Source: Candidatus Omnitrophota bacterium (GTDB lineage: Bacteria > Omnitrophota > Gorgyraeia > Duberdicusellales > 4484-171). From it: a stretch of 64,000 nt of DNA. Position numbers and translations under genes: made by a program. Positions 47,803-63,992 of the stretch are shown here, in pieces; positions within the stretch are counted from its first letter, which is position 1; every line of letters starts with the position of its first letter. The notes under the pieces were generated by a model. The model was given only the letters and a program-made list of their open reading frames with translations, searched no databases and was not told the DNA's origin. Where the stretch lies: assembly GCA_021735655.1 (NCBI GenBank), contig JAIPGM010000005.1:45461-109460 (forward strand), in the 5' to 3' direction.

Positions 47803-48132
47803 TTAAATCTTACAGCCACAATTTTTTCTTTTTAATATCTTTACCTGCTCTTTATAGGAATCTATAAATATACACTGCTTTTTTGAGCCGGTAGCTAATT
47901 TTCTATCAAGGTCGCTCTTATGCCTATATCCTCTATTGGCCATCTCCGCAACAAGTTTATTGTGCCGCAAATATAACGAAGCCAATTTACACTTCCATCT
48001 AAGCGTCTCCGGATGCCGAGAGTATCCTTTTTTATTCTTAGTTAGAATAGACCAAATAGCATGTAATTCCCTATGCTCACCTAGAAGATGATTGCGACAA
48101 AGTTTTTTTGGAGGTATATCCCAAATTCTCAT
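47803..48132 (-). CDS. Pyrimidine-dimer DNA glycosylase (T4 EndoV-like, Pyr_excise) family small protein
   Basis: N-terminus MRIWDIPPKKLCRNHLLGEHRELHAIW follows the MR.W..P..L....L..EHRE pattern of the family. Confidence 0.45.
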   Translation of the reverse strand: MRIWDIPPKKLCRNHLLGEHRELHAIWSILTKNKKGYSRHPETLRWKCKLASLYLRHNKLVAEMANRGYRHKSDLDRKLATGSKKQCIFIDSYKEQVKILKRKNCGCKI

Positions 48133-48261
48133 AATTAAAAGCTTGATTCTTCACAGCCTTTTCTGCTATTTCTACCGCCATTACCCGCCAACAACAAAAA
48201 CAAAAAAGCAACCCTAGGTAGAGAGCAGTAAAAAAGTTTAAGATATTTTGTTGCGAAATAA

Positions 48262-50010
48262 TTAAAAACTAACTTTGTAAGTAACCGATCCGCCAAGTTC
48301 GTAAAAGTCTTCTTTAAGCTGAGTTTCTAAATCAACCAAAAGAGTGGTATTTTTCTTGTTGAAGAATTCAAAACGGGAACCGACATTAAAGCTTGAGGGT
48401 GCCGGTCGGTAGCCTGAAGTTTCAAAAGAAGCCCCACCGCCCTCAAAACTGGCTAAAGACTGCTGTTTTTCATTCACCACACTGTAGAAATAACGAAAAC
48501 GAAGCTCGGGAGTGAACAGCATCTTCTCGCTCTCAAAAACCTTACTCAACCTAAGACCTCCGCCCAGCTGTAAAGTTTGGTAATTCTGAGACTCAACGCT
48601 GAGATTCAGCGCTCCGGCTCCAGTCTCAGTATAATCATCGAGCTCGAGATTAGTGTAGCTTAAAGCTAAAAGCGGAATGATCTCGAAATTCTTCTTTTTC
48701 AACTTATAGCCGCCTTCCAGGTAAGCTGAGAGCTGCTGGCCATCGTAATCAGCATTAGCCGTCCTTTCGATAGAACCGACAGTTACCTTTCTCGAATTAT
48801 TATATTCACTGTAGCCGTAAGTCAGCACTGCATCAAACAGATAAGGCTTATCCGGATGGCTATATTCTCCGTAAAGGCCGGTCTGATAACTTGTTATCCG
48901 AGTGCGCTCTTCGTTATCTTTTGACCTGATCTTACCTTCGCTAAACCCTTGGTCTATACCCAAGCGTAAAGAATTATTCAAAAACCCGTGGTCAAAGCCG
49001 ATAACATTACCCCAAAGCTTAGCCCGGTAACCCTTACTTGCACCACGCTCACCCTGCCGGGCATAGCCACCATAAGACTGAAACCAGATATCGTTATTAA
49101 AAGAATCCTCTAATGAGTCTTCCTCAAGGCTATCTTCCTCGATCTTTGAATCTTGTAAACGCAATACCGTGGTCCTGACAAATTTATCCAGGGAACCGTT
49201 TGAGGTATTGATTACTCCCCTGTTAGCAGAAAGGCCCATGTCGTTCTCGGCCGAAGCTACGCCACCACCAGATAAAGCTTCGAGAGTATTAAGAATCGTG
49301 GTCATGTCCGAAGAAGGATTGCTTATATTATCGAGAACCCGACCGACAGCAGCTGAATTAGAGCTGGAAGCCTGGCTTTCAAACCCAGAGGTTGACCGGT
49401 CAGCAGTTAAAACCAAGTTGCCTCCGGAATTTGACGCGCTAAATGACACCCGAGAGTTACTTGAGGTAACTGTAGTCGGAGCATTCCCTATTCCTGAACC
49501 ATTAGTATCGATAATAGTAAAGGTTGCATTTGACGGTATATAGATATCATTGCTAACTGTAACCGCCACTGTACTTGCTGTATTTACCACTGCTGCGGCA
49601 CCAGAAGTTATCCTGCCTGAGGTTGAAGGCGTATCAACGGTCAGGTTAAGGGTAGTCCCTGATCCTTGAGTATAAATGCCGGTACCGCCAAGAGTAAGAG
49701 TATTGGCTCCCAAGCCCAAACTGCCGGCATTATCTAAAGTAAGGTTTCCGGTAATTGTGCGGCTGCCAGTAAGATTTAAAGTTCCGCCGTCTCCTGCCGA
49801 ATCTACAGTAGTAGTTACGGCCGCCAGGTTATGCCCTAGAAAAAGTGTACCCTCCCCGGGCAGACGTCTGACTGCGGCTCGATTCGCTATGAATTCCGCA
49901 TAGAAGTCACCAGACCCAGCAAAAATCACGCCAGAATACGCCTGATTCCGACGGATTCCGAGGATCCGAAACAAAGCCCTGCCTTTGCCCTTGAAGCTCA
50001 AGGGTGCCAA
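48262..50010 (-). pseudogene. Autotransporter-like outer-membrane protein (Gly/Thr/Ser-rich passenger + C-terminal beta-barrel ending in F); N-terminus lacks a signal peptide, possibly 5'-truncated next to the IS
   Basis: C-terminal ~280 aa has alternating amphipathic beta strands and a terminal aromatic. Passenger has TLNLTG repeats. First 60 aa are non-hydrophobic and lie in the higher-GC DNA adjoining the transposase. Confidence 0.5.
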
Positions 50011-50139
50011 AATAGCCTTAAATACGCCTTAAAATAATGAGAATTTTTGAGGGGTTTTATGCCCAGAAAGGGCTATATGCTGTTTAGCGGGGTGCAGTTA
50101 ATATGCGACCGGTTTTTAAGGTAGGAAAAGTCGCCTAAC

Positions 50140-51295
50140 TTGTTGTAGAATGGACACTTACTCAAAACAACACTTTTTGCCATGAAAGGAGCTTTTGTAT
50201 CATGAACCACACCCAATCTTATACCATAAACGGCTGTATATTCCAAGAGTTTTTACTGCTTCTGGGCAGGGTTGTCCACAGTGACCTGATCCGGCAGATG
50301 GAGTACCTGAAAGTGGAGAATGAGGTTCTGCGGACCAAATGCCCGAAACGGATAACCACAAGCCCGGCCGAGAAACGTAAGCTCATCAAATACGGCCTTG
50401 CCTGCAGGGGCAGAATAAAAGGCATTATATCCATCGTAAGCTATTCTACCTTCAGGCGCTGGGTAAATGGCGATATCCGCAATAAATATAAGCCTTCCAA
50501 GCAAGGCACGCCCAGAAAGACCACACAGGAAATAATAGACCTTATAGTACGCCTTGCCCGGGAAAACTGCGACTGGGGCTATGGCCGGATAATGGGCGAG
50601 TTAAAGAAACTAAACATCATCAGACTGTCCCGGAATACCATAAAGGCCATAATGCGCCAGAACGGCCTTGATCCGGCACCAATAAGGGCCCATGACTCAT
50701 GGGATGCCTATATAAAGCGCCATTTCGAAACCTTATGGGCTTGTGACTTCTTTACCAAGACCATCTGGACAGCCATGGGGCCCAAGCTATTCCATGTATT
50801 ATTCTTCTTGAATATCAGAACCCGGAAGGTCCATATAGCCGGTATAACAGAAAAACCTAAAAAGGAATGGGTGATGGAAGCGTCAAAGACGGTATCGTTT
50901 CTATTCAAAGATAAGACCAAGAAGCTCCTTATTCGAGACGGTGATGCTAAATTCCCGAAAGAGTTCAATAGCCTTTTCAAAGACTGTAATACAAAAGTCA
51001 AAAAGATACCGCACCGGTCACCGAATCTTAACCCTTATGCCGAAGGCTTCGTGGGAACCATAAAAAGGGAATGCACGGATCACTTCTTCGTGTTCGGCGA
51101 ACGTCACTTCGAATACCTTGTCCGGGAATACGTCAAATACTATAATACCAAACGTCCGCATTCCGGCCGGGATAACCGGCCCCTTGAATATCATTCGGAG
51201 AAATCAACCGGCAAGCTCAAATGCGACTCACGCCTGGGTGGGATGATTAAGCATTATTATTGGGGGTAACGGAAGGTCACAGTAACTCATCCTCA
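50140..51295 (+). mobile_element. IS element (IS481/IS3-like, single DDE transposase ORF); ends approximate
   Basis: Transposase ORF with a local rise in GC relative to flanks. Terminal inverted repeats could not be defined by eye. Confidence 0.4.
50202..51269 (+). CDS. DDE transposase with N-terminal HTH/leucine-zipper and rve integrase core domain
   Basis: AAAGGAG RBS. rve-type motifs (..WACDFF.., RDGDAKF, NTKRPHSG). 355 aa. Codon usage and GC differ from neighbours. Confidence 0.8.
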   Translation: MNHTQSYTINGCIFQEFLLLLGRVVHSDLIRQMEYLKVENEVLRTKCPKRITTSPAEKRKLIKYGLACRGRIKGIISIVSYSTFRRWVNGDIRNKYKPSKQGTPRKTTQEIIDLIVRLARENCDWGYGRIMGELKKLNIIRLSRNTIKAIMRQNGLDPAPIRAHDSWDAYIKRHFETLWACDFFTKTIWTAMGPKLFHVLFFLNIRTRKVHIAGITEKPKKEWVMEASKTVSFLFKDKTKKLLIRDGDAKFPKEFNSLFKDCNTKVKKIPHRSPNLNPYAEGFVGTIKRECTDHFFVFGERHFEYLVREYVKYYNTKRPHSGRDNRPLEYHSEKSTGKLKCDSRLGGMIKHYYWG

Positions 51296-53045: not shown

Positions 53046-55826
53046 CTACTTGTTATATTTCTTATAAATTTCTGTTAAAAACTCAAACCCTGCTCTAGCA
53101 TATTTATCACAAATAGAATTTGCAATTTCATTTTTAAAACCAGCTAAATAAATTTTTTCAACAATAGATTGAATATTTTCTTGCTTATACCACGGAATAC
53201 TTTTTTCTATCATTATTAAAAATACATTCCCTACGTCTTTTGGGTTAACGTCTGCTAATTTATCGAAATACTCAAGTAAGAATGAACTATGGTAACGCTC
53301 TTCTACATATTTAATTGACTGCTTCAACCAATCCACCTGCTCTGTTTGTAATTGATCAAGAAATACCGCGAGTAGATTCAAATCGGAAAGGATGTCTTTG
53401 TTTTTGTCTTCTTTTCCTTTTGTTCTGTTAAAACAATACCGCCAAAATTCAAATATTCTTTCCTTTTGGTCGCAATCTAATTGCGCATCCCTATGAGCCC
53501 AAAAAAGACTGATCACCTCTTCAATATCATTTGGGTCCCATTTTTCTAAAATATATTTAAACAAACTGTCTTGGCCATCTATAGTCTCTTGCCCCCTTAA
53601 GTAGGATATTGTTACATTTTCTACAATTCGTCTTTTCGCTTGATCGTTCGAAAATTTTGTATCAAGCGCACGCCTTAGATGACCGTTATCTTTTAATAGA
53701 TTGTAGATAACAGCATAAACGGTATTGACATAAGAATATCCTTGCATAGCGCATCGCCAATGCTTTTCTTCAGCAGGAAAGATATTATTAATATTCGAAG
53801 TAACCCAATTTTTCTGCAAATAATACAAATTAGGCAAATAAGCACCAGATAGGCTTGAGAATTCGAAGTTTCCTTCCTTTGTTCTTTCAATCTCCCGACT
53901 AAATAGTGGCGCTACTGTCTTCCAGAAATCCTCTTTTTCTTTTATACCTTTATCAGGCAATTTTTCGAAATCACGGTACCGCCTAAGGACATAACTTTTA
54001 AAACTCTCTAGCACATGACCCTTTGTGGTATTAATCGCTTCGGTAAGCGCGTCTTCATCTTTACCACTTGCTGTTGATTCTTGTTTATCAAGCAGGGTCC
54101 GAATAATATTGTCTATTCTCTTATAATTATTCTCAGTAAGATTCAAATCGTCATTCTGAATCCCATTCTTGATCAAATCCGAGATAGCCGCAGGAATCCA
54201 ACTTTTCTTAGGTTCAAGGGGAAACTGACTCTCCTTCTCTTTCCCGTCCCACAATACATCATCGCAGACGATAGCTTGACAAAAGTCTAAAATCTTGTCC
54301 CAATTAATCTCTTTTTTATCCCGCGCAAGTTCTTCAAACGCCTCTATTACATAATACCAATATTCGTAACTAGACTTCTTGAACTCAATGAGACAATTTT
54401 CAAAAAATCCCTGTTTTAGCTTAATCGCTTCTTTTAAAGACTGGCCTGCTTCTCGTATCGCAGTTTCTCCAAAGCGGTTTTTACCTTTGAAGTTACCAAG
54501 GAAAGTAATAATTTCGTTAATGCTTCCCTGTGCCAACAATTCACTAGCTGAAAATAGAGACTCATCCCCCCATGATACAGGTCCAATATAACTTAAGAAT
54601 TCTGGATGTTCCGGCTTATAATCAATCCCTTTAAAATATTTCTCCTCTACATCATTCGGTATTGAATATCCCGAAACTTTAATAGCATATAGCCATCGCC
54701 TGCGAAGTATCGCATCCAATTTTTCCTTATCAACATCTTTTCTCCAGTCCCCGGACAACTGAACAACATCATTCATCAATGAATTCTGAAGATCTTGAGA
54801 AAATTGTTTAAAGTGGCGTGTTATCAGCTTATACAGTTCGTGGTGATAATTACTTTCGAGGAAAATAGTTTTACCGGTATCGCGAATGATTTTTTCACTA
54901 GTGGTTTTGTATTTATCAAACAACTGTCCTGTAATATACAATGAAAAACGTCTAATAATATGCTTGTCTGACCTAAAGCATGATTCAATAATAGTAGACG
55001 CTTCCTGTGAGGACGCATAGGCAAGAAACACATCTCTTAATCCAGAAACTAAAATATGTCGATATTCATCTCTGCTTATATTCTGTTCGCTATCTTCGAT
55101 TGCTGGACGCCACATATAAGAATATGCGTCATCCTTTTCCGTCACAATATGCTCAATTTTCTTCTTAAGAATTTCGACAATTTCGGCACCATATTTTTCG
55201 CCCAAATGCGTAGCATTGATCTTAAATAATTCCTGCAAACTATGGGCACCAAGGCTATGCCGATTTTCAATCCTGATGAAGTCAAGAATGATTTCTATAA
55301 GTCGGCTAACTTTTTGTAACTCCTCTGGTTCTTTCAATAAGTTTGGCAAAAGGGTTTTGCCAATCTCCAGCATTACCATTGAGGCATCAAACTTACTGTC
55401 AAGCCAATCAGCAATAAGCTCAATATCTTTTATTTCCACGACATCTGACGGCAAGAGTGCCATGATTTTAACAAAAGACTGCCACGTACGCCAATTATCT
55501 GCTTTTTTGGTCTTATCATCGGGACGAGTCACCTCACGAATAATTGACATTAACTTTCGGACATGCTCTTTATTTCCAGATTTCGAGCATTCTTTGGATA
55601 CCTTTTCTAAATATGTCAAAGCAGGCCAATATGGAATTGAGAAGAAACCTTTGTTTTTTTCCGACTCTACTGGAGAAGGATTATTTGTTGAACCAAAATA
55701 ACCATGATCTTTAAGCAAAGTAAGATATTCAACCTTCGACAATTCATTAAAGACCTGTGCTCGGTATTCAGCCCCTTTTGCCATGTAATCTAAAAGACTT
55801 TTTTGCTCTGGAGTTATATTCGTCAT
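53046..55826 (-). CDS. Large (926 aa) all-alpha-helical repeat protein, second gene of the SIR2 operon; no NTPase motifs
   Basis: No Walker A/B. Helix-rich composition throughout. Start overlaps the SIR2 stop (ATGA). Confidence 0.5.
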   Translation of the reverse strand: MTNITPEQKSLLDYMAKGAEYRAQVFNELSKVEYLTLLKDHGYFGSTNNPSPVESEKNKGFFSIPYWPALTYLEKVSKECSKSGNKEHVRKLMSIIREVTRPDDKTKKADNWRTWQSFVKIMALLPSDVVEIKDIELIADWLDSKFDASMVMLEIGKTLLPNLLKEPEELQKVSRLIEIILDFIRIENRHSLGAHSLQELFKINATHLGEKYGAEIVEILKKKIEHIVTEKDDAYSYMWRPAIEDSEQNISRDEYRHILVSGLRDVFLAYASSQEASTIIESCFRSDKHIIRRFSLYITGQLFDKYKTTSEKIIRDTGKTIFLESNYHHELYKLITRHFKQFSQDLQNSLMNDVVQLSGDWRKDVDKEKLDAILRRRWLYAIKVSGYSIPNDVEEKYFKGIDYKPEHPEFLSYIGPVSWGDESLFSASELLAQGSINEIITFLGNFKGKNRFGETAIREAGQSLKEAIKLKQGFFENCLIEFKKSSYEYWYYVIEAFEELARDKKEINWDKILDFCQAIVCDDVLWDGKEKESQFPLEPKKSWIPAAISDLIKNGIQNDDLNLTENNYKRIDNIIRTLLDKQESTASGKDEDALTEAINTTKGHVLESFKSYVLRRYRDFEKLPDKGIKEKEDFWKTVAPLFSREIERTKEGNFEFSSLSGAYLPNLYYLQKNWVTSNINNIFPAEEKHWRCAMQGYSYVNTVYAVIYNLLKDNGHLRRALDTKFSNDQAKRRIVENVTISYLRGQETIDGQDSLFKYILEKWDPNDIEEVISLFWAHRDAQLDCDQKERIFEFWRYCFNRTKGKEDKNKDILSDLNLLAVFLDQLQTEQVDWLKQSIKYVEERYHSSFLLEYFDKLADVNPKDVGNVFLIMIEKSIPWYKQENIQSIVEKIYLAGFKNEIANSICDKYARAGFEFLTEIYKKYNK

Positions 55827-56812
55827 TTGTTTAATAACCGCCTTATGACATCTTTTTCTTCTTCAAAATTAGGCTTATTGACTTTAGCTTTTAGAACAGC
55901 TGCCCATTTAATAATGATCTCTTCCAAATGAACGTGTCCTTTTTTGTCGATGTTATAGTCAATCAATTTTATGCCACAATGTCTTTCAAAATATCCCTTA
56001 AGATGCTTATAGGCAGCGTTATCCCTGCTCATACGTGGATATAGCCAAAAATGCCTTGGTTCTTCAACCCTCGGGGAATTGCTTTTTCTAACAATGAACT
56101 CCAATATTTCTTCTTCTTCCAGTCCATATCCAATAAACAAGACAATCTTCCGCGAAAACAAATCATTTAAAAAATCTATAACAAATCTATTCATATAATG
56201 ATCCATATAATCTCTGGTGGTCATAATCATGGTTTCTTTGCTTTTTACGCTTCCATGAAGATGAATAACCGAGCCTGGCTGATCTAGTCGCGCAGATGTT
56301 AAATCCTCTTTCCTGAAAAATACAGAAGTAGGAGAGGTAATTCCAGAGTTTCCCAGAGAACTGTCATCACCTTTTGAACTTAATATTTTATTATCAGCGA
56401 GCTTATCAAGGCAATCATCATAATTAGTCGTTACAAAAACAGTCCCTATCGAATACAAAGCATCGTATATCGCCGTTTTTACCGCTATTTCTTTATCCTG
56501 AAAAATTAACCTTCCATAATCATAATCGATGCCTTTTGCTTTGTAGTTATCAAAAAAAATAGAGAGTTGAATCTTGGGGTTTAAGGCTAAGAGAGAAGAT
56601 TTTTCTGAATATTCGATGTGCCCTTCTTTATAGAGAATGTCAATCGCCCGTCTTCCAAGCTCAACCCATGAAGGGTACCCCAATAATCTAGATACTCCAT
56701 TGCCGACAAACAAAATTAATTTGCCGTTTTGAGCTGCGTCGATAATAGACGAATGATCTTCTATGTTGGGAATAATTCTTGACGCAGGATTTTTATCTTC
56801 TATCGTCATCAA
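55823..56812 (-). CDS. Stand-alone SIR2_2-family (defence-type sirtuin-like NADase) domain protein
   Basis: Motifs in the canonical order: KLILFVGNGVSR (GAGxS equivalent), VFVTTNYDDCLD, VIHLHGSV (catalytic His), IVLFIGYGLEE. 329 aa. Confidence 0.75.
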   Translation of the reverse strand: MMTIEDKNPASRIIPNIEDHSSIIDAAQNGKLILFVGNGVSRLLGYPSWVELGRRAIDILYKEGHIEYSEKSSLLALNPKIQLSIFFDNYKAKGIDYDYGRLIFQDKEIAVKTAIYDALYSIGTVFVTTNYDDCLDKLADNKILSSKGDDSSLGNSGITSPTSVFFRKEDLTSARLDQPGSVIHLHGSVKSKETMIMTTRDYMDHYMNRFVIDFLNDLFSRKIVLFIGYGLEEEEILEFIVRKSNSPRVEEPRHFWLYPRMSRDNAAYKHLKGYFERHCGIKLIDYNIDKKGHVHLEEIIIKWAAVLKAKVNKPNFEEEKDVIRRLLNK

Positions 56813-57157
56813 TAATACCCCCTAATATACGTTTCTAAATCTACCTCTCCGTCCAATACCTCTGCTTGATCCAAAACCTTTTTGACGGGTACAGTATATT
56901 CACCGGTCGGTTAGTTCCCCACTACCTGCTAACCCTTCTACCAACCTAATTTACCAACCCATGATTCTTACTGGTTAGTTATCTGGGCAGTTTTCAGGGT
57001 AGTCTTTTTAGGATATTCAAAATATTTGTTACTCATACATGACCTTTATAATATTACTTTCATAAAAAATGCCATAACCTGAATTCTATCGGGCTACGGC
57101 AAATCGCAATGGCAGGTCTTTTAGTCTAAAACTCTCGAGCAACCTTCGCCCATCAAA

Positions 57158-57931
57158 TTAGCACTTTAAACATTTTTCTTTTTTAGTCGACTGCTGTTTT
57201 GAATGTATTCGTTCCCGCGCCATCCGACAATACTCTGGAGAAATATCAATGCCGATATAATTTCGTTTAAGGTCCCTTGAAACAACGGCTGTCGTTCCCG
57301 AGCCCATAAAAGGATCAAGTACAATTTTAGCATTGGTTGATGATACAATTCTTTGAATCAAAGATACAGGAAATGGAGCAGGGTGCCCATTTTTCATTTC
57401 CTGCGTAAATTCCCAAACATCACCGTAGGCATTCGCTTTTTTTGCCAATTTGAAATCCGGTTTAGCTATCAAGTATATAACCTCATAAGTAGGCAAGAAA
57501 TACCCTGCGTTAAAATTAATTCCACCTTTTCTTTTCCAAACAATAATCTGGCGCACAGGAAATTTACTGACAATGTCATGCCGGTCTTGAAGCAAGCCAT
57601 TTTGTACCCGCCATTTATGATTATAAAAAATTGCTCCGTCATTTTTTATTAATCTATACATTTCATCGAGACATTTAATTTGCCATGACACATATTCTTC
57701 ATGAGGCATACAGTCATCATGATGACTGTATCCGTTAATCAAAGCGGCTCTCGACCATTTACCACCGCGACCATCTTTCATACCGTTTCCTGTAGAATTC
57801 TTAAGATTGTAAGGCGGAGATGTCACAGCCAAATCAATCGATTCGTCCGGCATTGCTTTCATTACTTCTAAACAATCACCGCAAATGATCTTATTCAGAT
57901 AATCCTTAGGAAATTTTAGTTTAGCACTCAT
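57158..57931 (-). CDS. DNA amino-methyltransferase, beta-class (motif IV SPPY N-terminal, motif I FMGSGTT C-terminal); N4-cytosine or N6-adenine
   Basis: LAVTSPPYNL near the N-terminus. DPFMGSGTTAVVS near the C-terminus. Confidence 0.8.
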   Translation of the reverse strand: MSAKLKFPKDYLNKIICGDCLEVMKAMPDESIDLAVTSPPYNLKNSTGNGMKDGRGGKWSRAALINGYSHHDDCMPHEEYVSWQIKCLDEMYRLIKNDGAIFYNHKWRVQNGLLQDRHDIVSKFPVRQIIVWKRKGGINFNAGYFLPTYEVIYLIAKPDFKLAKKANAYGDVWEFTQEMKNGHPAPFPVSLIQRIVSSTNAKIVLDPFMGSGTTAVVSRDLKRNYIGIDISPEYCRMARERIHSKQQSTKKEKCLKC

Positions 57932-57955
57932 TTCATTCTTTCGATAACAGGTTAA

Positions 57956-58762
57956 TCAAAACACCTCTTTAACATCATCATATAGATCCGACCACACGCC
58001 TTGCTTGAGCCGAAATTTTGTTCCGTGGTTATGTCCCGTTCGGGCGTCAAAATCAATCAACAAACTTCCTGCCTCTACACAGCACAAGAATTTCTCAAAT
58101 GAAAAACCAGATAGAACAGAAAGGTGTTGATAGCAAAAATACTCATGCCCGTCGTCAATTTTGGCCTCAGCGATAACGTAAAAACAATTCTTTATTTTTT
58201 CGCCAATCGCATACTTCAAATCTTCAAAGCCCCAATAAGGCTCCGGTGAAATCGCTCCCAAGCCAGCTCTTTTTTTAACAGAAGATAGCCATGCCTTGAT
58301 CTCAGGGTCTGCCATATCAGCCTTCTTTGAGTCAAATACGAACTTCAACTTTTTAGCAGTACGATCAACGACTACTGTAAATCCGCGATTTGTAAAACTA
58401 CTAGAGCTGGTGGTAGACCGAAAACTCATTTCAGTTTTGGGGTATTTAAACCCAGCCTGTTTATGTGGCCAACCATATTTTGGTAAAAGAATATTGCTTA
58501 CAATCCGAGCCGCTGTTGGCGATGGTTCAATGTGCTTTAATGTTATAAGCGAAGAAGAATGCGCTCGCTGTCCTTTAAGCTCCCATTCTCGAGCATTAGG
58601 AATCGGCAGATTGTTTTCTGTAATGCCAAGAAGAACTTCAAGCGTGTTGCCAACAGCGCCATCATTTCGAGTGTCTCGTGTTTGTTTTACGCTCTTATGC
58701 CACCCTTTCGATGCGATAGCTTTAATTTCCTTGATTAACTCATCCTTTGAAAATAATTTCAT
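57956..58762 (-). CDS. Type II restriction endonuclease, MvaI/BcnI-like
   Basis: Sandwiched between two MTase genes with 24- and 13-nt spacers. N-terminal pattern MKLFSKDEL..DGAVGNTLEVLLGI.ENN..EWELKG matches my recollection of this family. A candidate ExK (VIAEAK) follows acidic residues. Confidence 0.5.
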   Translation of the reverse strand: MKLFSKDELIKEIKAIASKGWHKSVKQTRDTRNDGAVGNTLEVLLGITENNLPIPNAREWELKGQRAHSSSLITLKHIEPSPTAARIVSNILLPKYGWPHKQAGFKYPKTEMSFRSTTSSSSFTNRGFTVVVDRTAKKLKFVFDSKKADMADPEIKAWLSSVKKRAGLGAISPEPYWGFEDLKYAIGEKIKNCFYVIAEAKIDDGHEYFCYQHLSVLSGFSFEKFLCCVEAGSLLIDFDARTGHNHGTKFRLKQGVWSDLYDDVKEVF

Positions 58763-58775
58763 AATCTCCCTTTCA

Positions 58776-59768
58776 CTAATACCTTTTTTGGGGCGGCTTC
58801 CAGAAATCTAAAAGATATTCAAAAGTTACACCCATTGTTATATAATTGCTTGGCCAGCCAAAAATACCAATGCCATTGACCACATTGGTACGATCCCATA
58901 TTATGACATTTCGTAATTCATAGCCTCTCTTACGGAGTTCCTCAATCAACGAAACGTGAATTGTAATGCGCCGGTTTTCCCACCACATATCCGGAACATT
59001 AATAACGCAATGTGCTTTCTCTCTAAGCAGAGGAAGTAACCCTTCAAAAATATCTCCCATTGCCGTCGTATAGGAATCAATAGCCATTGTGCCTAGATCA
59101 CGCACATCTTGAGAATATTGCTCAACTTTACCCAATTGCTTGTTGTTCCTGTCGCGTCGAGATTTGTTTTGACGGGATCTATTTAAAAGATTTGCGTAGG
59201 GCGGAGATGTCCAGATCAAACTTACAGTATTGGGGGAGAGATATTCTGAAATATTTCTGGCGTCATCCTGAATGGCCATCTGAGCACATGCATTAAACAG
59301 GTTAGGATTCTTTTGGAGCCGCTTAACACATAACTCAATGTATTTTTTTTGGAGATCGAACCCAACGGCATTTCGGTTCAAATCAGTTGCGGCAATAAGT
59401 GATGTTCCACTTCCAACAAACGGGTCAATAACCAATTGTCCCTGATGTGTGAATAATTCGATGACTTTTTTTGCGAGGGATATTGGAAAAGTTGCAGGAT
59501 GAACAGATTTATCTCTTATATCGCGAGTTTCATAAAAAAACTGCCAAACTCCTATTTGGGATTTAAGCCAGTCCTTGGGGCCCATGCAATTAATATGTGT
59601 ATGGCCACAATTACATAAACGCTCGTGCGCCATACCTAGCTTTGTGCCATATAAAGAATCGCCTTCAAAAACGGCCAAGGCTTTTTGCTCTGTTTTACTC
59701 TTATCATTGTGACCCTGATCAATAGATCTTTTGTCAACCGCGCTATGACCAAAACTTTGATTTCCCAT
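58776..59768 (-). CDS. Second DNA amino-methyltransferase (motif I DPFVGSGTS precedes motif IV SPPY)
   Basis: DPFVGSGTSLIAATDL at ~aa 113. IWTSPPYANL at ~aa 187. 330 aa. Confidence 0.8.
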   Translation of the reverse strand: MGNQSFGHSAVDKRSIDQGHNDKSKTEQKALAVFEGDSLYGTKLGMAHERLCNCGHTHINCMGPKDWLKSQIGVWQFFYETRDIRDKSVHPATFPISLAKKVIELFTHQGQLVIDPFVGSGTSLIAATDLNRNAVGFDLQKKYIELCVKRLQKNPNLFNACAQMAIQDDARNISEYLSPNTVSLIWTSPPYANLLNRSRQNKSRRDRNNKQLGKVEQYSQDVRDLGTMAIDSYTTAMGDIFEGLLPLLREKAHCVINVPDMWWENRRITIHVSLIEELRKRGYELRNVIIWDRTNVVNGIGIFGWPSNYITMGVTFEYLLDFWKPPQKRY

Positions 59769-59825: not shown

Positions 59826-60446
59826 TTAGATATTTCGAATCGTAGTAACTACAATACCCTGCACCTGAAAATCTCTAGTAACCACTATTGGCTTATGTTG
59901 TTTATTGCTCGAACACGGTTTCAAAACGACCGTATCTCCTGATGAATTATATTGTTTAACTGTAACCTCGTTGTCAACTAAAGCAATGATGACATCTCCT
60001 GTGTTTGCGGTTTCCTGTTTGCGCACGAGTAGGAAGTCACCATCTTCAATACCTTTCTGATTCATTGAGTCGCCTTTGGCTCTGACAAGAAAATATTTAT
60101 GCGGAAGTTGGGCTAATTTTGTTGAAACCGGAAACCACGATTCGATATTTTCTTCAGCTAAAATAGGAATACCACAGGCAACAGTACCGACAAGAGGCAC
60201 GCTGATTGTCTGAACATTATCACTGTTATTAATATCCATAACCAATCGCAAGGCCCCTGAAGGATTTCTACGCAACACTCCTTTAGAAATTAATTTGTTA
60301 ATCAATAGGGCAACAGAGCGAGGTGAACGATATCCTAAAGTCCCCATTAAGTCTCTTAATGAAGGGCATTTGCCAAAATTGACAAGAGCATTTCGGATGG
60401 CTTTAATGACAATCGCTTCTTTATCGGAAATCATTATATTGCTCAT
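59826..60446 (-). CDS. LexA/CI-like repressor with S24 peptidase domain (ORF-track extent 59826..60527; start more likely at 60446 or 60434)
   Basis: N-terminal HTH (LVNFGKCPSLRDLMGTLGYRSPRSVALLINKLISKG). VACG cleavage-site analogue. S24 Ser/Lys region (AKGDSMNQ..). A perfect palindrome lies at the start. Confidence 0.7.
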   Translation of the reverse strand: MSNIMISDKEAIVIKAIRNALVNFGKCPSLRDLMGTLGYRSPRSVALLINKLISKGVLRRNPSGALRLVMDINNSDNVQTISVPLVGTVACGIPILAEENIESWFPVSTKLAQLPHKYFLVRAKGDSMNQKGIEDGDFLLVRKQETANTGDVIIALVDNEVTVKQYNSSGDTVVLKPCSSNKQHKPIVVTRDFQVQGIVVTTIRNI

Positions 60447-60463
60447 GTATACAATTGTATACA
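60446..60463. promoter_or_regulatory. Perfect 18-bp palindrome TGTATACAATTGTATACA at the repressor start (SOS-box-like operator candidate)
   Basis: Exact palindrome with the half-site pattern TGTATAC..GTATACA, reminiscent of CTGT-N8-ACAG LexA boxes. It overlaps or abuts the repressor start codon. Confidence 0.5.
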
Positions 60464-61085
60464 ACATGGATAACTTTGTCAATGATTTATTTTCTTGATG
60501 ATGAAAAGGCAACGCTGATAATAACATATGTGTTTTTCAGAACATCAAAACTTGTTCAGGTTTTACTGACTTTCAAAGCCACGGCTTAACAGGACAAAAC
60601 TACATTTATACTGACATTCGCATGTCAATGATGACAATTTTGCCCTGTTTTGACCCTGTTTTGAGCCATTTTGGGCCCTTTTTACTGACATATTGGCATT
60701 GGAATGTCAGGGTGTACCGGCCGTTTTGCCCTCAAATCGTGAAATAATTCCAATCATAACATCAATAACTACAATATATTACGCATAAATAGTCTTTTCC
60801 AAGATCATGATGCGAATGACAAAATTGTCCCTGACATCGTTTTTTGAAGTCAAAATCACTGACAAACTGCGCCTCGGCTGACCCTCGGCCCAGGCCCGCC
60901 CGGGAAGGACCCACAATAATAATGCGTGCGGAGGAGGGTGGCAAGGAGGCCAATCTCCACCCTCTGCCAAGGCGCATTTACTCCATTAGAAAGCCGTCAT
61001 TTCTAACAGAGTTTACCTGACAAAACCTTTGCGATGGAACAGCGTCCGAGATCATCGCTTGGGCTTCTCCGCATTATTTGACTTG

Positions 61086-61769
61086 TTACTCCGTTACCGC
61101 TTCCGAAACATCCACAGCAAGGGAAGACTGCACACTGAAACGTTTCGTAAGTTTGTCTATTTCTTCCTCGATATCGAAGCTCCGCACCCAGCTCTCCTTT
61201 CGCTCGATATCCTTTTCGATATCCGCAACCGTCGGCTTACTTCTATCGGCCAAGGCTCTGTCTTTGGCCTCATGAAATATGTCATACGGTTCACTTCCAA
61301 GCGCCGGACTGAACGATGGATATTCCTCAAGACGTCTTCGTGCGGTTTCCGGATGACCATATATTGCGATAGCCATAGCGTAAAGCCTGCCTTTTTCACG
61401 CCAGAGCTCAAGCTCCACCTTCAAACGCTTGCTGTTAAGCACTCTGCGCTCTGTCACGATATTGCGTGATTCTTCCTCATGCAGGGCTGTCAGTGTTTCA
61501 GAAAGCTTTGCCTTTAGCTTTTCGATAGTTTCGTCAACGATCTCGAGATTTATCTTGGCCTCATCGAAACGCTTGTCCGCTTGCTTTACCGCATCCGGAC
61601 TTATTTTCTCGTCGCATATTGCCCGGCTTCTGATTTCTTTTACCTTTTCCTTCGCCTCGTCGTGTTCCTTCTGATATTGCCTTTGCTTTTTCTCAAGCGC
61701 TACTATCTGTTCGACAATCTCATCCGGCGTGCTTTTCTTATTCAGAATATTCAGAAAATTAAGTTTCAT
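61086..61769 (-). CDS. Coiled-coil hypothetical protein
   Basis: 227-aa ORF, highly charged with heptad-like patterns. Preferred over the shorter overlapping plus-strand ORF. Confidence 0.45.
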   Translation of the reverse strand: MKLNFLNILNKKSTPDEIVEQIVALEKKQRQYQKEHDEAKEKVKEIRSRAICDEKISPDAVKQADKRFDEAKINLEIVDETIEKLKAKLSETLTALHEEESRNIVTERRVLNSKRLKVELELWREKGRLYAMAIAIYGHPETARRRLEEYPSFSPALGSEPYDIFHEAKDRALADRSKPTVADIEKDIERKESWVRSFDIEEEIDKLTKRFSVQSSLAVDVSEAVTE

Positions 61770-61775
61770 GATTTT

Positions 61776-62195
61776 TTATCTCCTTTCGATTTTGTTAGGT
61801 GCTGTAATAGATAAGGCTTCTTCCAGGCTACAACCATTCGATTCCTGATAACTTCTGGCACGTTCGATATGCTCCAACTGCTCGGCAATTAAAGCGCTGT
61901 CGGAATCAACCTTTTTATCCGGCGCTGTCCGGCTTAAAGCCTCGGTTAACGTACACTCGAATTTATCCCTGTACTCATAGGCCCGCTTGAGATGTTCAAG
62001 CCGGATATCGCCGGTAGAGACCATTCCCGGATGTTTCTTTGCTGTCACCCGTAAAGCCTCGGCAAGAGTGCATTTATTGCGCTTCATGTAGATATTGGCG
62101 TCGATTAAATGCACAAGTTGTTTTTCTTCCTCCGAGCCCGGGACATAACGCTTGATCATCTGACTGATCGTATTCAATACATGTAATTGGTTCAT
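61776..62195 (-). CDS. Small protein with three ~40-aa internal repeats (C(T/S)L(A/T/E)EAL..TA)
   Basis: Repeats RNKCTLAEALRVTAKKHP / KFECTLTEALSRTAPDKK / ESNGCSLEEALSITAPNK. Confidence 0.45.
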   Translation of the reverse strand: MNQLHVLNTISQMIKRYVPGSEEEKQLVHLIDANIYMKRNKCTLAEALRVTAKKHPGMVSTGDIRLEHLKRAYEYRDKFECTLTEALSRTAPDKKVDSDSALIAEQLEHIERARSYQESNGCSLEEALSITAPNKIERR

Positions 62196-62549: not shown

Positions 62550-63992
62550 ACTGTTTTCAAAAAACGTATCGCCTTTATTCTTGCGTAAAATAAATAGCTT
62601 CCGGCCCGTTCCGGATTCCCGCTTTTTGCTACGTACAATATCAATTCCTATACCACGCATAACCGGCGCTATCCTCATAAGCTCCGATGATAGAGCCTTG
62701 GGATTATCGGGAATGCGTTTATCGAACCCGGACTCCGGCTTAATATACTCAAGCAAGGTAGTGGCTGAACCGCACCACTGTCCGCCGTTGGATTCCACAA
62801 GATAGGCTAACTTCTGCGTAATAGGGTTCTCTTCGGCAGTATCTTCCCATTTATACTCAACCGACTCCTGATACTTTTTGAAAAACTCATCCTGTGAATA
62901 TCCCAGTGTCTCGGAAAGGGCCGCGCCCCACCTGGCAAAGTCTGACATTCTAAACTTTTCATGGCCGGTTACTTTATTAACGATGGCCATAGCATTGGAT
63001 ATCGCCGAGAAGAAACCGCCCAATATGCCCGGAAGCGATGCCTGCCATTCATCGGCAATCTGCTTTTCGGGCCTTGTTTCTTTTAAAGGCGGGATATCGA
63101 AGATGATGGATCTATCCAGTAAATCCGGCCTGCATACGGAATTGCCTATACCGTTTAATACAAAGCACCGGCGGTATGTCCGTATGAATACCTCGTCATT
63201 CGTGTAAAGCGAGCGTTTCATGTCACCTTCACCGGTTACGGCCCGGCAGAGGAAATCACTGAACCATTCGGAAATCTTCGAAAGGTTATCGAAAGTATTT
63301 ATCCAGTGTTTATCTGCTATCATTTGAGCCTGATCCAAATCCTTTGGGCTTGAGATGAGCATAACCTTGGAAGGGTCGCATAGGCTTTTAATCAACCGGG
63401 AATTATTGGATTTTCCCGTGCCTTGCTCGCCGACTTGAACAGGTATAACGTGGGGAATATCTGGAATAAAAAACGACGCTAACATCGTCATGAAAAGACA
63501 GTAATCATCCTTGTTGATATTACAGAATTCCAGAAACCTCTTCGGATCATGTCCTTTAACAGGTATAACCTGCGTATCCTGATGATTGTATCTTTTGAAT
63601 ACCGGCGGAAGGTAGACAACCTGCCAGCCTTTCTTATCTATAAAGACTCCCTTCCAATCGGGTGTAGTAAGATCATAATAAATGCTGTCTTTATACCAGC
63701 CGACACGGTTATAAAGTTCGAATTTGGGCGAATCTTCGCATTTTGCCTCTGCCTGAATCCGTGCCTGTTTTAATGCTTCGTTACATGGCGGGCTTTTGTA
63801 TTTATAGCGGTAGCGCTTGGCAAGCCAGTTCCTGAAGCGGGAGCTGTTGGTCTGGCATACCTCCAGATGATTATCGATAGGGAGCACTATAAAGGAGTTG
63901 CCTTGCTGATCACGATAATAGTCTGTTATTTCTTTTTCGCAGTATCGTGTAAGTATTTCACCCTGGGTGGGATGCGCCTTGCGATAATTCAC
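62499..63992 (-). CDS. VirE/P4-primase C-terminal-like P-loop ATPase (replication protein of a mobile element)
   Basis: Walker A VGEQGTGKSNNSRLI. A hydrophobic stretch followed by D (Walker B-like). 497 aa. Next to the iterons. Confidence 0.55.
   Translation of the reverse strand: MNYRKAHPTQGEILTRYCEKEITDYYRDQQGNSFIVLPIDNHLEVCQTNSSRFRNWLAKRYRYKYKSPPCNEALKQARIQAEAKCEDSPKFELYNRVGWYKDSIYYDLTTPDWKGVFIDKKGWQVVYLPPVFKRYNHQDTQVIPVKGHDPKRFLEFCNINKDDYCLFMTMLASFFIPDIPHVIPVQVGEQGTGKSNNSRLIKSLCDPSKVMLISSPKDLDQAQMIADKHWINTFDNLSKISEWFSDFLCRAVTGEGDMKRSLYTNDEVFIRTYRRCFVLNGIGNSVCRPDLLDRSIIFDIPPLKETRPEKQIADEWQASLPGILGGFFSAISNAMAIVNKVTGHEKFRMSDFARWGAALSETLGYSQDEFFKKYQESVEYKWEDTAEENPITQKLAYLVESNGGQWCGSATTLLEYIKPESGFDKRIPDNPKALSSELMRIAPVMRGIGIDIVRSKKRESGTGRKLFILRKNKGDTFFENSVNEGVNVCERCEDTPG

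Follow-up and report, generated by a model that had tools for sequence, protein, structure and literature searches.

A probable intrinsic terminator and lambda-type cos site in a satellite-like element of Omnitrophota

Introduction

The cos site of phage lambda spans about 200 bp and has three parts, cosQ (a highly conserved 7-bp element), cosN and cosB; the subsites of cosB come in the order R3-I1-R2-R1, where R3 occupies bp 48-65 and R2 is inverted (PMC4669245, PMC9026076). Among lambda-like phages, variation in cosN is found mainly in its right half, and cosQ plus cosN suffice for the termination of lambda packaging (PMC4669245). Related signals exist outside of phages; for example, phage-inducible chromosomal islands (PICIs) carry cosQ and cosN sequences that are nearly identical to those of their helper (PMC9026076). 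Here we analyze a non-coding gap of 640 bp in a mobile element of a Candidatus Omnitrophota bacterium, contained in a 64,000-nucleotide stretch of contig JAIPGM010000005.1 (the window, numbered from its first nucleotide), and we regard it as likely that this gap contains a terminator followed by a lambda-type cos site on a satellite-like element.

To our knowledge, there is no experimentally tractable phage system for Omnitrophota, and no report of a phage satellite from this phylum was found in the literature searched. A first-pass annotation had described positions 60580-61030 of the window as non-coding, repeat-rich and marked by a spike in GC content, and had proposed that they contain an attP or oriT site, an operator field for the adjacent repressor, or a small structured RNA. 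All of the features it listed are present in the sequence, and the gap extends beyond the interval it gave.

A conserved core in the gap between p227 and lexA

The gap separates p227, which encodes a 227-aa coiled-coil protein, from lexA, and the genes that flank it are all on the minus strand (Table 1). It contains no conserved open reading frame (ORF), ORFs of 58-71 aa switch frame among relatives, and synonymous-site variation is absent from the invariant stretch of the gap in an alignment of relatives. A scan of the window for tRNA and tmRNA genes found none, a blastn search with the gap as query found no match among GenBank phages or PLSDB plasmids, and the consensus of the core described below had only chance matches to phages (blastn). 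The GC content is 0.535 in 60800-60999, compared to ~0.38 for the whole window. CTGACA, said to occur at least five times, is found six times in 60560-61025, where 0.12 occurrences are expected from the remaining window (Poisson P = 5e-9), and these sites are also kept in homologous elements; TGACA occurs nine times in the same interval (0.58 expected). Both of the longer inverted repeats lie exactly where the first-pass annotation had placed them, and its tandem 11-mer is present twice, one base away from the 60642-60663 it had given.

Homologous regions (loci and contigs are denoted by L numbers) were reached through both protein and DNA. The p227 family, with 58 members from Omnitrophota and related metagenome-assembled genomes (MAGs), led by protein alignment alone to 17 genome loci in which a module of primase-polymerase, small ORF and p227 is conserved. 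Downstream of p227, nine of these 17 loci contain the non-coding block 60832-60915 (extending to 60980) at 72-78% nucleotide identity (blastn), a value that exceeds the identity of much of the coding DNA in these loci. A profile search adds the core in two loci that miss the exact pattern used below (L013, L017), and it detects the core once in the window; the order primase-polymerase, small ORF, p227 and core is kept in L002-L023. The names given to homologous proteins and the MAG contig L002 both place the window in Candidatus Omnitrophota. When a 20-base pattern from the core was used, it matched 57 IMG/VR viral contigs and at least 120 metagenome contigs, which gave 173 distinct sequences, and a census of core-containing loci covers 193.

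The core, ~230 bp long, opens with the heptamer GGGTCCT, which is kept in nearly all of the ~190 homologs even though the search pattern did not demand it. Other sequences that are conserved beyond the demands of the pattern include GGGTCCTT upstream, plus an A-tract and tandem TGTC units downstream. A GC-rich block, which has the consensus GGGCGAGGCGC in this family, starts 32 nt after the first G of the heptamer in the consensus and 33 nt after it in the window. As judged from its sequence, the gap is a real, functional and conserved cis-acting region of the mobile element, and its repeat units appear to act like protein-binding sites, a view that agrees with the general proposal of the first-pass annotation.

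Resemblance to lambda and other phages with GpA-type terminases

The heptamer of this family is identical to the sequence that we take to be lambda cosQ, GGGTCCT. The published account of lambda cosQ gives only its 7-bp length and its conservation (PMC4669245). In the lambda sequence that was fetched for comparison, the ends read ...CACTTTACGGGTCCTTTCCGGTGATCCGACAGGTTACG joined to GGGCGGCGACCTCGCGGG, GGGTCCT lies 30 nt before the right end, and its TTTACGGGTCCTT flank is that of the family consensus. The distance from the first G of the heptamer to the GC-rich block (GGGCGGCGACCT in lambda) is 30 nt, close to that in the family and the window, and in both lambda and the family this block starts with GGGCG. 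In both cases repeated units, one of them inverted, follow an A/T-rich stretch, and the site is upstream of genes for the small terminase, a GpA-type large terminase and a lambda-family portal. When the family profile was searched against both strands of circularized lambda (nhmmer), the best match was the heptamer region on the correct strand. It is the position of this match that is telling, as ~40 positions out of 97,000 would have been acceptable. In L017 and L018, which were found without the search pattern, the GC-rich block differs mainly in its right half, as does cosN among lambda-like phages.

There are also differences between lambda and this family, which has uncultivated hosts in an Omnitrophota setting. 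Unlike lambda, the family has a ParB-methylase gene between the site and terS, and its R units are tandem pairs of TGTC type, with the distal units ~150 nt away and partly inside a gene. In addition, two-fold symmetry could not be recognized in the cosN-like block of the family.

Another phage, the Vibrio phage X29 (NC_024369), has ends that were physically defined by coverage drop-offs (PMC5690320). Like the family, X29 contains GGGTCCT, 40 nt from its right physical end, and its left end comprises ~140 nt, including an A-tract and five repeats of GTTAACAC, after which genes for a ParB-like protein, the small terminase (TerS) and a GpA large terminase (TerL) follow in the order seen in the family. 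Unlike the family, X29 uses GTTAACAC as its repeat unit, similarity outside the heptamer is undetectable, and a BLASTP comparison of the family phage TerS to that of X29 found no significant similarity. The right ends of Paenibacillus phage Lily (L209) and Roseburia phage Shimadzu (L210) contain GGTACTT at -28 and GGTTCTT at -40, respectively, and each of these variants is also seen within the family. Taken together, these cultured phages with GpA terminases, from Proteobacteria and Firmicutes (L208-L210), have GG[GT][TA]C[CT]T at a distance of 28-40 nt from the right end of each linear record. These comparisons suggest that the cosQ-like heptamer is conserved well beyond the enteric lambdoid phages. 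The region is best read as a terminator plus a lambda-type cos site that is unusual for the phylum in which it is found and for the unexpected depth of conservation of its cosQ-like heptamer.

Linkage to terminase genes and matching of repeat units

The genomic position of the core provides a separate line of evidence. In 93 of the 193 loci, a gene for a ParB_N+methylase protein starts 104-214 nt after the core and is followed by small and large terminase genes; 51 other loci are satellite-like, and the remaining 49 are too short or unclassified. The large terminase (GpA_ATPase+GpA_nuclease, Pfam PF05876/PF20454) lies at a median of +2073 from the core, with a lambda-family portal (PF05136) next, and TerL is found within 4 kb in 46 of the 75 loci that have at least 4 kb of downstream sequence. 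The 208-aa protein encoded after the ParB-methylase is a small terminase (PHROGs phrog_57, E = 4e-16).

A second relationship between satellites and phages is found in the repeats. In both classes of loci, the tandem unit located ~41-56 nt past the GC-rich block recurs ~130-150 nt further on, inverted and then direct. These R units are alike within a site and different between subfamilies (for example, TGTCCATGTCCA occurs with TGATGGACATG..GGACAT, while TGTCAGGG occurs with CCTGACAT..GATGTCA..ATGTCAG), the tandem TGTC units co-vary as a pair between subfamilies, and the unit types are common to phage and satellite loci. The R3 variant of the window, CGATGTCAGGGACAAT, is also present in phage contigs L054, L059, L062 and L079, and this unit and the CTGACAT-N12-ATGTCAG palindrome both correspond to units in these four contigs plus L024 and L045. 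Comparison of the window to these six phage contigs shows that similarity is confined to two blocks, cosQ to R3 and R2/R1, separated by a poorly conserved spacer and bounded by dissimilar sequence on each side (Table 1). As far as their sequences indicate, the CTGACA sites and the palindrome are R-like units. In the phages, the R2/R1-like sequence also forms the first codons of the ParB-methylase gene (KPDI..MS); at this block the window has no ORF, having lost both the start codon and the frame.

Beyond the R2/R1-like units, the window has a repeat field (60609-60682) that is 87% shared with L002, a MAG contig, and not with the phages. Other satellites contain comparable sets of inverted TGACA/TGTCA sequences plus CAAAACAGG motifs, and this field could provide additional R-like sites or, alternatively, a site for replication or regulation.

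Table 1. Features of the gap and neighboring regions, with nucleotide identity to phage contigs L054, L059, L062, L079, L024 and L045 where it was tabulated
Feature	Position in window	Strand	Description	Identity to the six phage contigs
Pyrimidine-dimer DNA glycosylase gene	47803-48132			
Autotransporter gene	48262-50010			
rve-family insertion sequence transposase gene	50202-51269			
lexA promoter and tandem palindrome	60445-60482	-	TTGACA-17-TACAAT; TTGTATACAA x2 abutting ATG; outside the cos finding	
Gap borders	60447-61085	both genes -	Non-coding; lexA ATG at 60446, p227 stop at 61086	
Sequence beyond R2/R1 block				25-35%
Satellite-only repeat field	60609-60682	-	TCAAAACAGGG x2 (60643-60664); TGTCA-N5-TGACAT-N4-ATGTCAGTA (60609-60636)	25-35%
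Inverted repeat	60612-60627		TGACAT-N4-ATGTCA	
Tandem 11-mer	60643-60664		CCCTGTTTTGA x2	
CTGACA, plus strand	starts 60611, 60685, 60831, 60859, 61017	+		
CTGACA, minus strand	60705-60710	-		
Conserved core	60912->60683	-	Follows the terminator	
R2/R1-like units	60683-60713	-	ACCCTGACAT-N12-ATGTCAGTA; inverted and direct copy of R3 unit; contains the palindrome of the next row	78-81%
Inverted repeat	60685-60710		CTGACAT-N12-ATGTCAG	
Spacer	60714-60823	-	AT-rich, poorly conserved	36-44%
A-tract and R3-like tandem unit	60824-60845 (unit 60839->60824)	-	CGATGTCAGGGACAAT; ~41-56 nt into putative left end	
TCAGTGA	60856-60862	-	I2-like position between cosN and cosB; overlaps one CTGACA site; from conservation	
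cosN-like GC-rich block	60868-60886	-	GAGGGTC-AGCCGAGGCGCA; putative nicking region; from alignment of homologs	
cosQ-like heptamer	60906-60912	-	GGGTCCT	
cosQ-to-R3 block				82-88%
Upstream flank				16-32%
Hairpin B	60921-60978	-	GC-rich; probable intrinsic terminator; from fold and covariation	
Hairpin A	60980-61012	-	13-bp stem, 7-nt loop	
p227	61086-61769	-	ORF; last gene of primase-polymerase/p139/p227 operon; context only	

A model for packaging by a helper phage

The above features suggest that the core is probably a lambda-style cos site that is common to the satellite and a phage family, presumably so that these phages package the element. By analogy to lambda and to PICIs with a cos site, a helper phage in the same cell would supply the small terminase that binds the TGTCA-type R units, and this binding would place the GpA-type large terminase at the GC-rich block for nicking, a cleavage predicted to leave cohesive ends. 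DNA of the element would then be reeled into helper capsids until cosQ and cosN at the next copy end packaging. An element of this type, with replication, excision and integration genes and lacking those for a virion, would be a satellite that copies the packaging signal of its helper.

Several observations weigh against this proposal. The invariance of the core is partly imposed by the search pattern, as is the conservation of TCAGTGA (L013 has TGAGTGA at this position). Inspection of the cosN-like block revealed no convincing two-fold symmetry that would locate the nicks. Taken alone, the profile match to lambda is weak (4.4 bits, E = 1.6). Coding constraint on the ParB codons contributes to conservation of the R2/R1 block in phages, and the copy in the window could be a relic of the 5' end of a ParB gene. 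None of the IMG/VR contigs has a terminus at the predicted cut, a result that is uninformative because these contigs are metagenome assemblies. In addition, no recombinase is visible in the window, which stops at its end (64000) inside the primase gene. Finally, the U-tract that follows the proposed terminator is degenerate and interrupted in the window (AUUAUUAUUG), and a consensus-based scanner made no call for it.

Other possible functions of the region

Since the core always lies just upstream of the ParB-TerS-TerL operon, it could be a late promoter or regulatory leader of this packaging operon (for instance, a site for a phage sigma factor of the extracytoplasmic function (ECF) type or an antiterminator) that satellites keep in order to switch on genes at the late stage of the helper. 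The phages encode an ECF-type sigma factor upstream, the core of satellites precedes a p73-Xis-recombinase or p90-lexA operon, and the spacer contains a promoter-like sequence, TTGGAA-18-TATATT. However, a promoter would leave unexplained the identity to lambda GGGTCCT and its spacing to the GC-rich block, the physical ends of X29 at the equivalent position, and the R units whose inverted copies lie within a coding region. We judge this explanation unlikely, although such a role may overlap with, and add to, that of a cos site rather than replace it. Still less likely is the notion that the TGACA/TGTCA repeats are iterons of an origin for the primase-polymerase of the element, like P4 ori/crr or the origin of Staphylococcus aureus pathogenicity islands (SaPIs). 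The repeats are downstream of the replicase operon, several inverted TGACA sets occur in other satellites, and the field at 60609-60682 is not common to phages, but the cosQ-to-R3 and R2/R1 blocks are found in phages without this primase-polymerase, whose initiator is HTH_36 O-like. The type of repeat unit follows the phage contigs, and the origin reading could apply to 60609-60682 only.

The attP site suggested by the first-pass annotation, or more broadly an attachment site (attP, attL or attR) of a large serine recombinase, would account for the recombinase gene that is 620-700 nt downstream of the core in many relatives, and could make the loss of colinearity with L002 at 60609, near the start of an independent Logan contig at 60572, the end of the element. 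We consider this very unlikely, as the same core accompanies recombinases that are just 23-25% identical, some of them 2.5-9 kb away on the other strand (range -9 kb to +1.8 kb, both orientations), the recombinase of L019 and L022 abuts the host miaB gene on the side far from the core, and neither a tRNA nor a direct-repeat att signature was found. Integration at a tRNA gene was also explored and set aside: tRNA genes lie ~5.5 kb upstream in L003, L008 and L017, but no repeat of a tRNA 3' end was found downstream. The proposed oriT finds no partner, since there is no relaxase gene among the annotated genes. A small structured RNA in the GC-rich part would fit the local GC spike, a single-sequence fold slightly better than that of shuffled sequences (z about -2.2, both strands) and U-to-C changes in a CCUU..GGGG segment. 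Nevertheless, Infernal/Rfam scans yielded nothing at gathering score and only chance-level matches, with no family, at E up to 10, and RNAalifold found no consensus structure on either strand of the core among 127 non-redundant homologs; covariation is seen, and the terminator is the only helix that shows it. This makes an RNA gene extremely improbable. An operator role of the CTGACA sites for the LexA repressor encoded next to them is equally improbable: they are upstream of lexA and two form palindromes, but the lexA promoters of L005, L019 and L022 share a TGTATAC-type palindrome that overlaps the -10 element and have no CTGACA array, and CTGACA units are present in phage contigs where no lexA was found near the core.

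Implications for pairing satellites and helpers

If the cos assignment is correct, the GC spike and repeats of this region should be annotated as a terminator and packaging site, and not as an RNA gene or att site. With a shared packaging signal, satellites in metagenomes can be matched to phages that are candidate helpers, by a means that needs only sequence; by this approach, the element in the window pairs with phage contigs L054, L059, L062 and L079, a first phage link for this phylum. Coliphage lambda, Vibrio phage X29 and uncultivated phages of distant phyla all appear to have kept GGGTCCT and its ~30-nt spacing to the cut. If so, the termini of phages with GpA terminases could be predicted from sequence.

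The probable terminator of the primase-polymerase operon

Upstream of the core, the GC-rich imperfect hairpin noted by the first-pass annotation at 60921-60978 (hairpin B) is present as described, and its strand is minus, opposite to the one read in that annotation, on which it would work as a terminator. Hairpin B is the probable intrinsic terminator of the primase-polymerase/p139/p227 operon because its stem covaries in 22 relatives and a U-run follows it in relatives. The compensatory changes include AUGCGU/ACGCAU to AUGGUG/CACACC and GGGCG/CGCCC to GGGU/(G/A)CCC, and the 3' arm is conserved. Hairpin B is located 107 nt after the p227 stop codon, and it folds together with the adjacent hairpin A at -38.4 kcal/mol (z = -2.0). 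Hairpin A is seen only in the window and L002, and is missing from L004 and L010 in the alignment.

The p139 gene of this operon (61776-62195, minus strand) encodes a protein that has no family match and contains three internal repeats, C-[TS]-L-x-E-A-L-x-[IVR]-T-A-[PK]; other satellites have an ORF of 52-60 aa in its place. An extra small ORF that starts with MGWYRYKRKKKKWKPGFW... is found between the p227 terminator and the core in L003, L005, L008, L009 and L016, and is absent from the window.

The element and its relatives

The order of features in the window is primase, p139, p227, terminator, cos, lexA, restriction-modification genes and SIR2. Three relatives that are bounded by host genes (L019, L020, L022) provide a view of a whole element: host genes, cos, p90, lexA, methylase, MvaI/BcnI endonuclease, methylase, helix-turn-helix protein, p79, primase-polymerase (PF22763), small ORF, p227, terminator, cos, p73, Xis-like p59, large serine recombinase and host miaB. 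In L022 and L019, ~11 kb separate the host genes, and the Xis-like gene is of the HTH_17 type. By its gene profile the element looks like a phage satellite, because these relatives have an excisionase and a serine recombinase but no capsid genes; no virion or capsid gene was found in any of the three. A 582-aa ORF of the window (48262-50010) was considered as the missing recombinase and rejected, as it encodes an autotransporter.

Like P4 and cos-carrying PICIs such as EcCICFT073 (PMC6739421, PMC9026076), this would be, judged by its bounded relatives, a small integrative element without virion genes that has its own replication, excision and integration genes; it also has a cosQ-/cosN-like sequence that matches lambda-type phages, and adjoining defence cargo (a restriction-modification system and a SIR2 gene). 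PICIs of the EcCICFT073 type lack a helper-like cosB and redirect TerS by means of Rpp, whereas the R units described here match those of phage contigs. The replicase is also different, being an NrS-1-type primase-polymerase, and the integrase is a large serine recombinase. When p139, p227 and the primase fragment were compared to Pfam, PHROGs and NCBIfam, no markers of P4 (alpha, Sid, Psu, Delta), PICIs (AlpA/Rpp), capsid-forming PICIs (cfPICIs; capsid) or PICI-like elements (PLEs) were found, and the element is not filed in the P4, PICI or PLE families because no marker proteins were detected. Look-ups of the exact p227, p139 and 206/207-aa LexA proteins returned no record, and scans of viral contigs with single proteins found no relatives.

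The three bounded relatives each contain two cos-like cores in direct orientation ~8.6 kb apart (2232-2312 and 10797-10880 in L019/L020; 1914-1998 and 10526-10609 in L022), and the paired cores differ in R3 type (TGTCCATGTCCA and TGTCATGTCAT). Genes for p90, LexA, restriction-modification, primase-polymerase and p227 lie between the cores, and those for the Xis-like protein and serine recombinase lie outside. Direct packaging from one cos to the other could occur because lambda termination needs only cosQ and cosN. It is conceivable, though rather unlikely, that a helper packages such a two-cos cassette from the chromosome without excision, so that the satellite would spread a LexA/defence/replicase cassette by packaging in situ and would persist as a plasmid or insert again through recombination between cos sites. 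The p227-cos-lexA order of the window, L005, L121 and L161 is that expected from a cyclized two-cos unit.

In another sub-group of satellites (L084, L098, L100, L120, L187, L195), a small terminase homolog (phrog_57) is encoded right after the core, before p73, the Xis-like gene and the recombinase, and the R3 units of this sub-group (e.g. GTTGCATGTTCA, TGTCGGTGTCGG) were unseen in phage-class loci.

The LexA protein matches TIGR00498 (158 bits, cutoff 111). Its gene is seemingly leaderless, with a promoter that ends ~7 nt before the ATG, and the two copies of TTGTATACAA are a tandem self-complementary 10-mer, separate from the CTGACA field, that overlaps the -10 element. An equivalent layout (CTGTATAATACTGTATACATG) is found in L019 and L022, L005 is identical to the window, and the palindrome is a candidate SOS box for Omnitrophota LexA. 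Downstream of lexA (53046-59768, minus strand) is an MvaI/BcnI-family endonuclease with an N6_N4 methylase on each side, followed by a SIR2_2 protein and a 926-aa protein without family match. Both L019 and L022 also have the lexA-methylase-endonuclease-methylase block, which has the look of defence cargo carried along by the element.

Colinearity with L002, which is 93.5% identical, stops exactly at 60609, after ...GAATGTCAGTA, and L002 also diverges upstream of window position 62953, so the shared block is just 2.3 kb. The Logan contig that starts at 60572 (L001, SRR12088349) contains lexA and the restriction-modification genes, and the break at 60572-60609 may be a recombination or assembly breakpoint. 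Elsewhere in the window, a region of raised GC content (0.43-0.45) at 47803-51269 contains three genes, for the glycosylase, autotransporter and transposase listed in Table 1.

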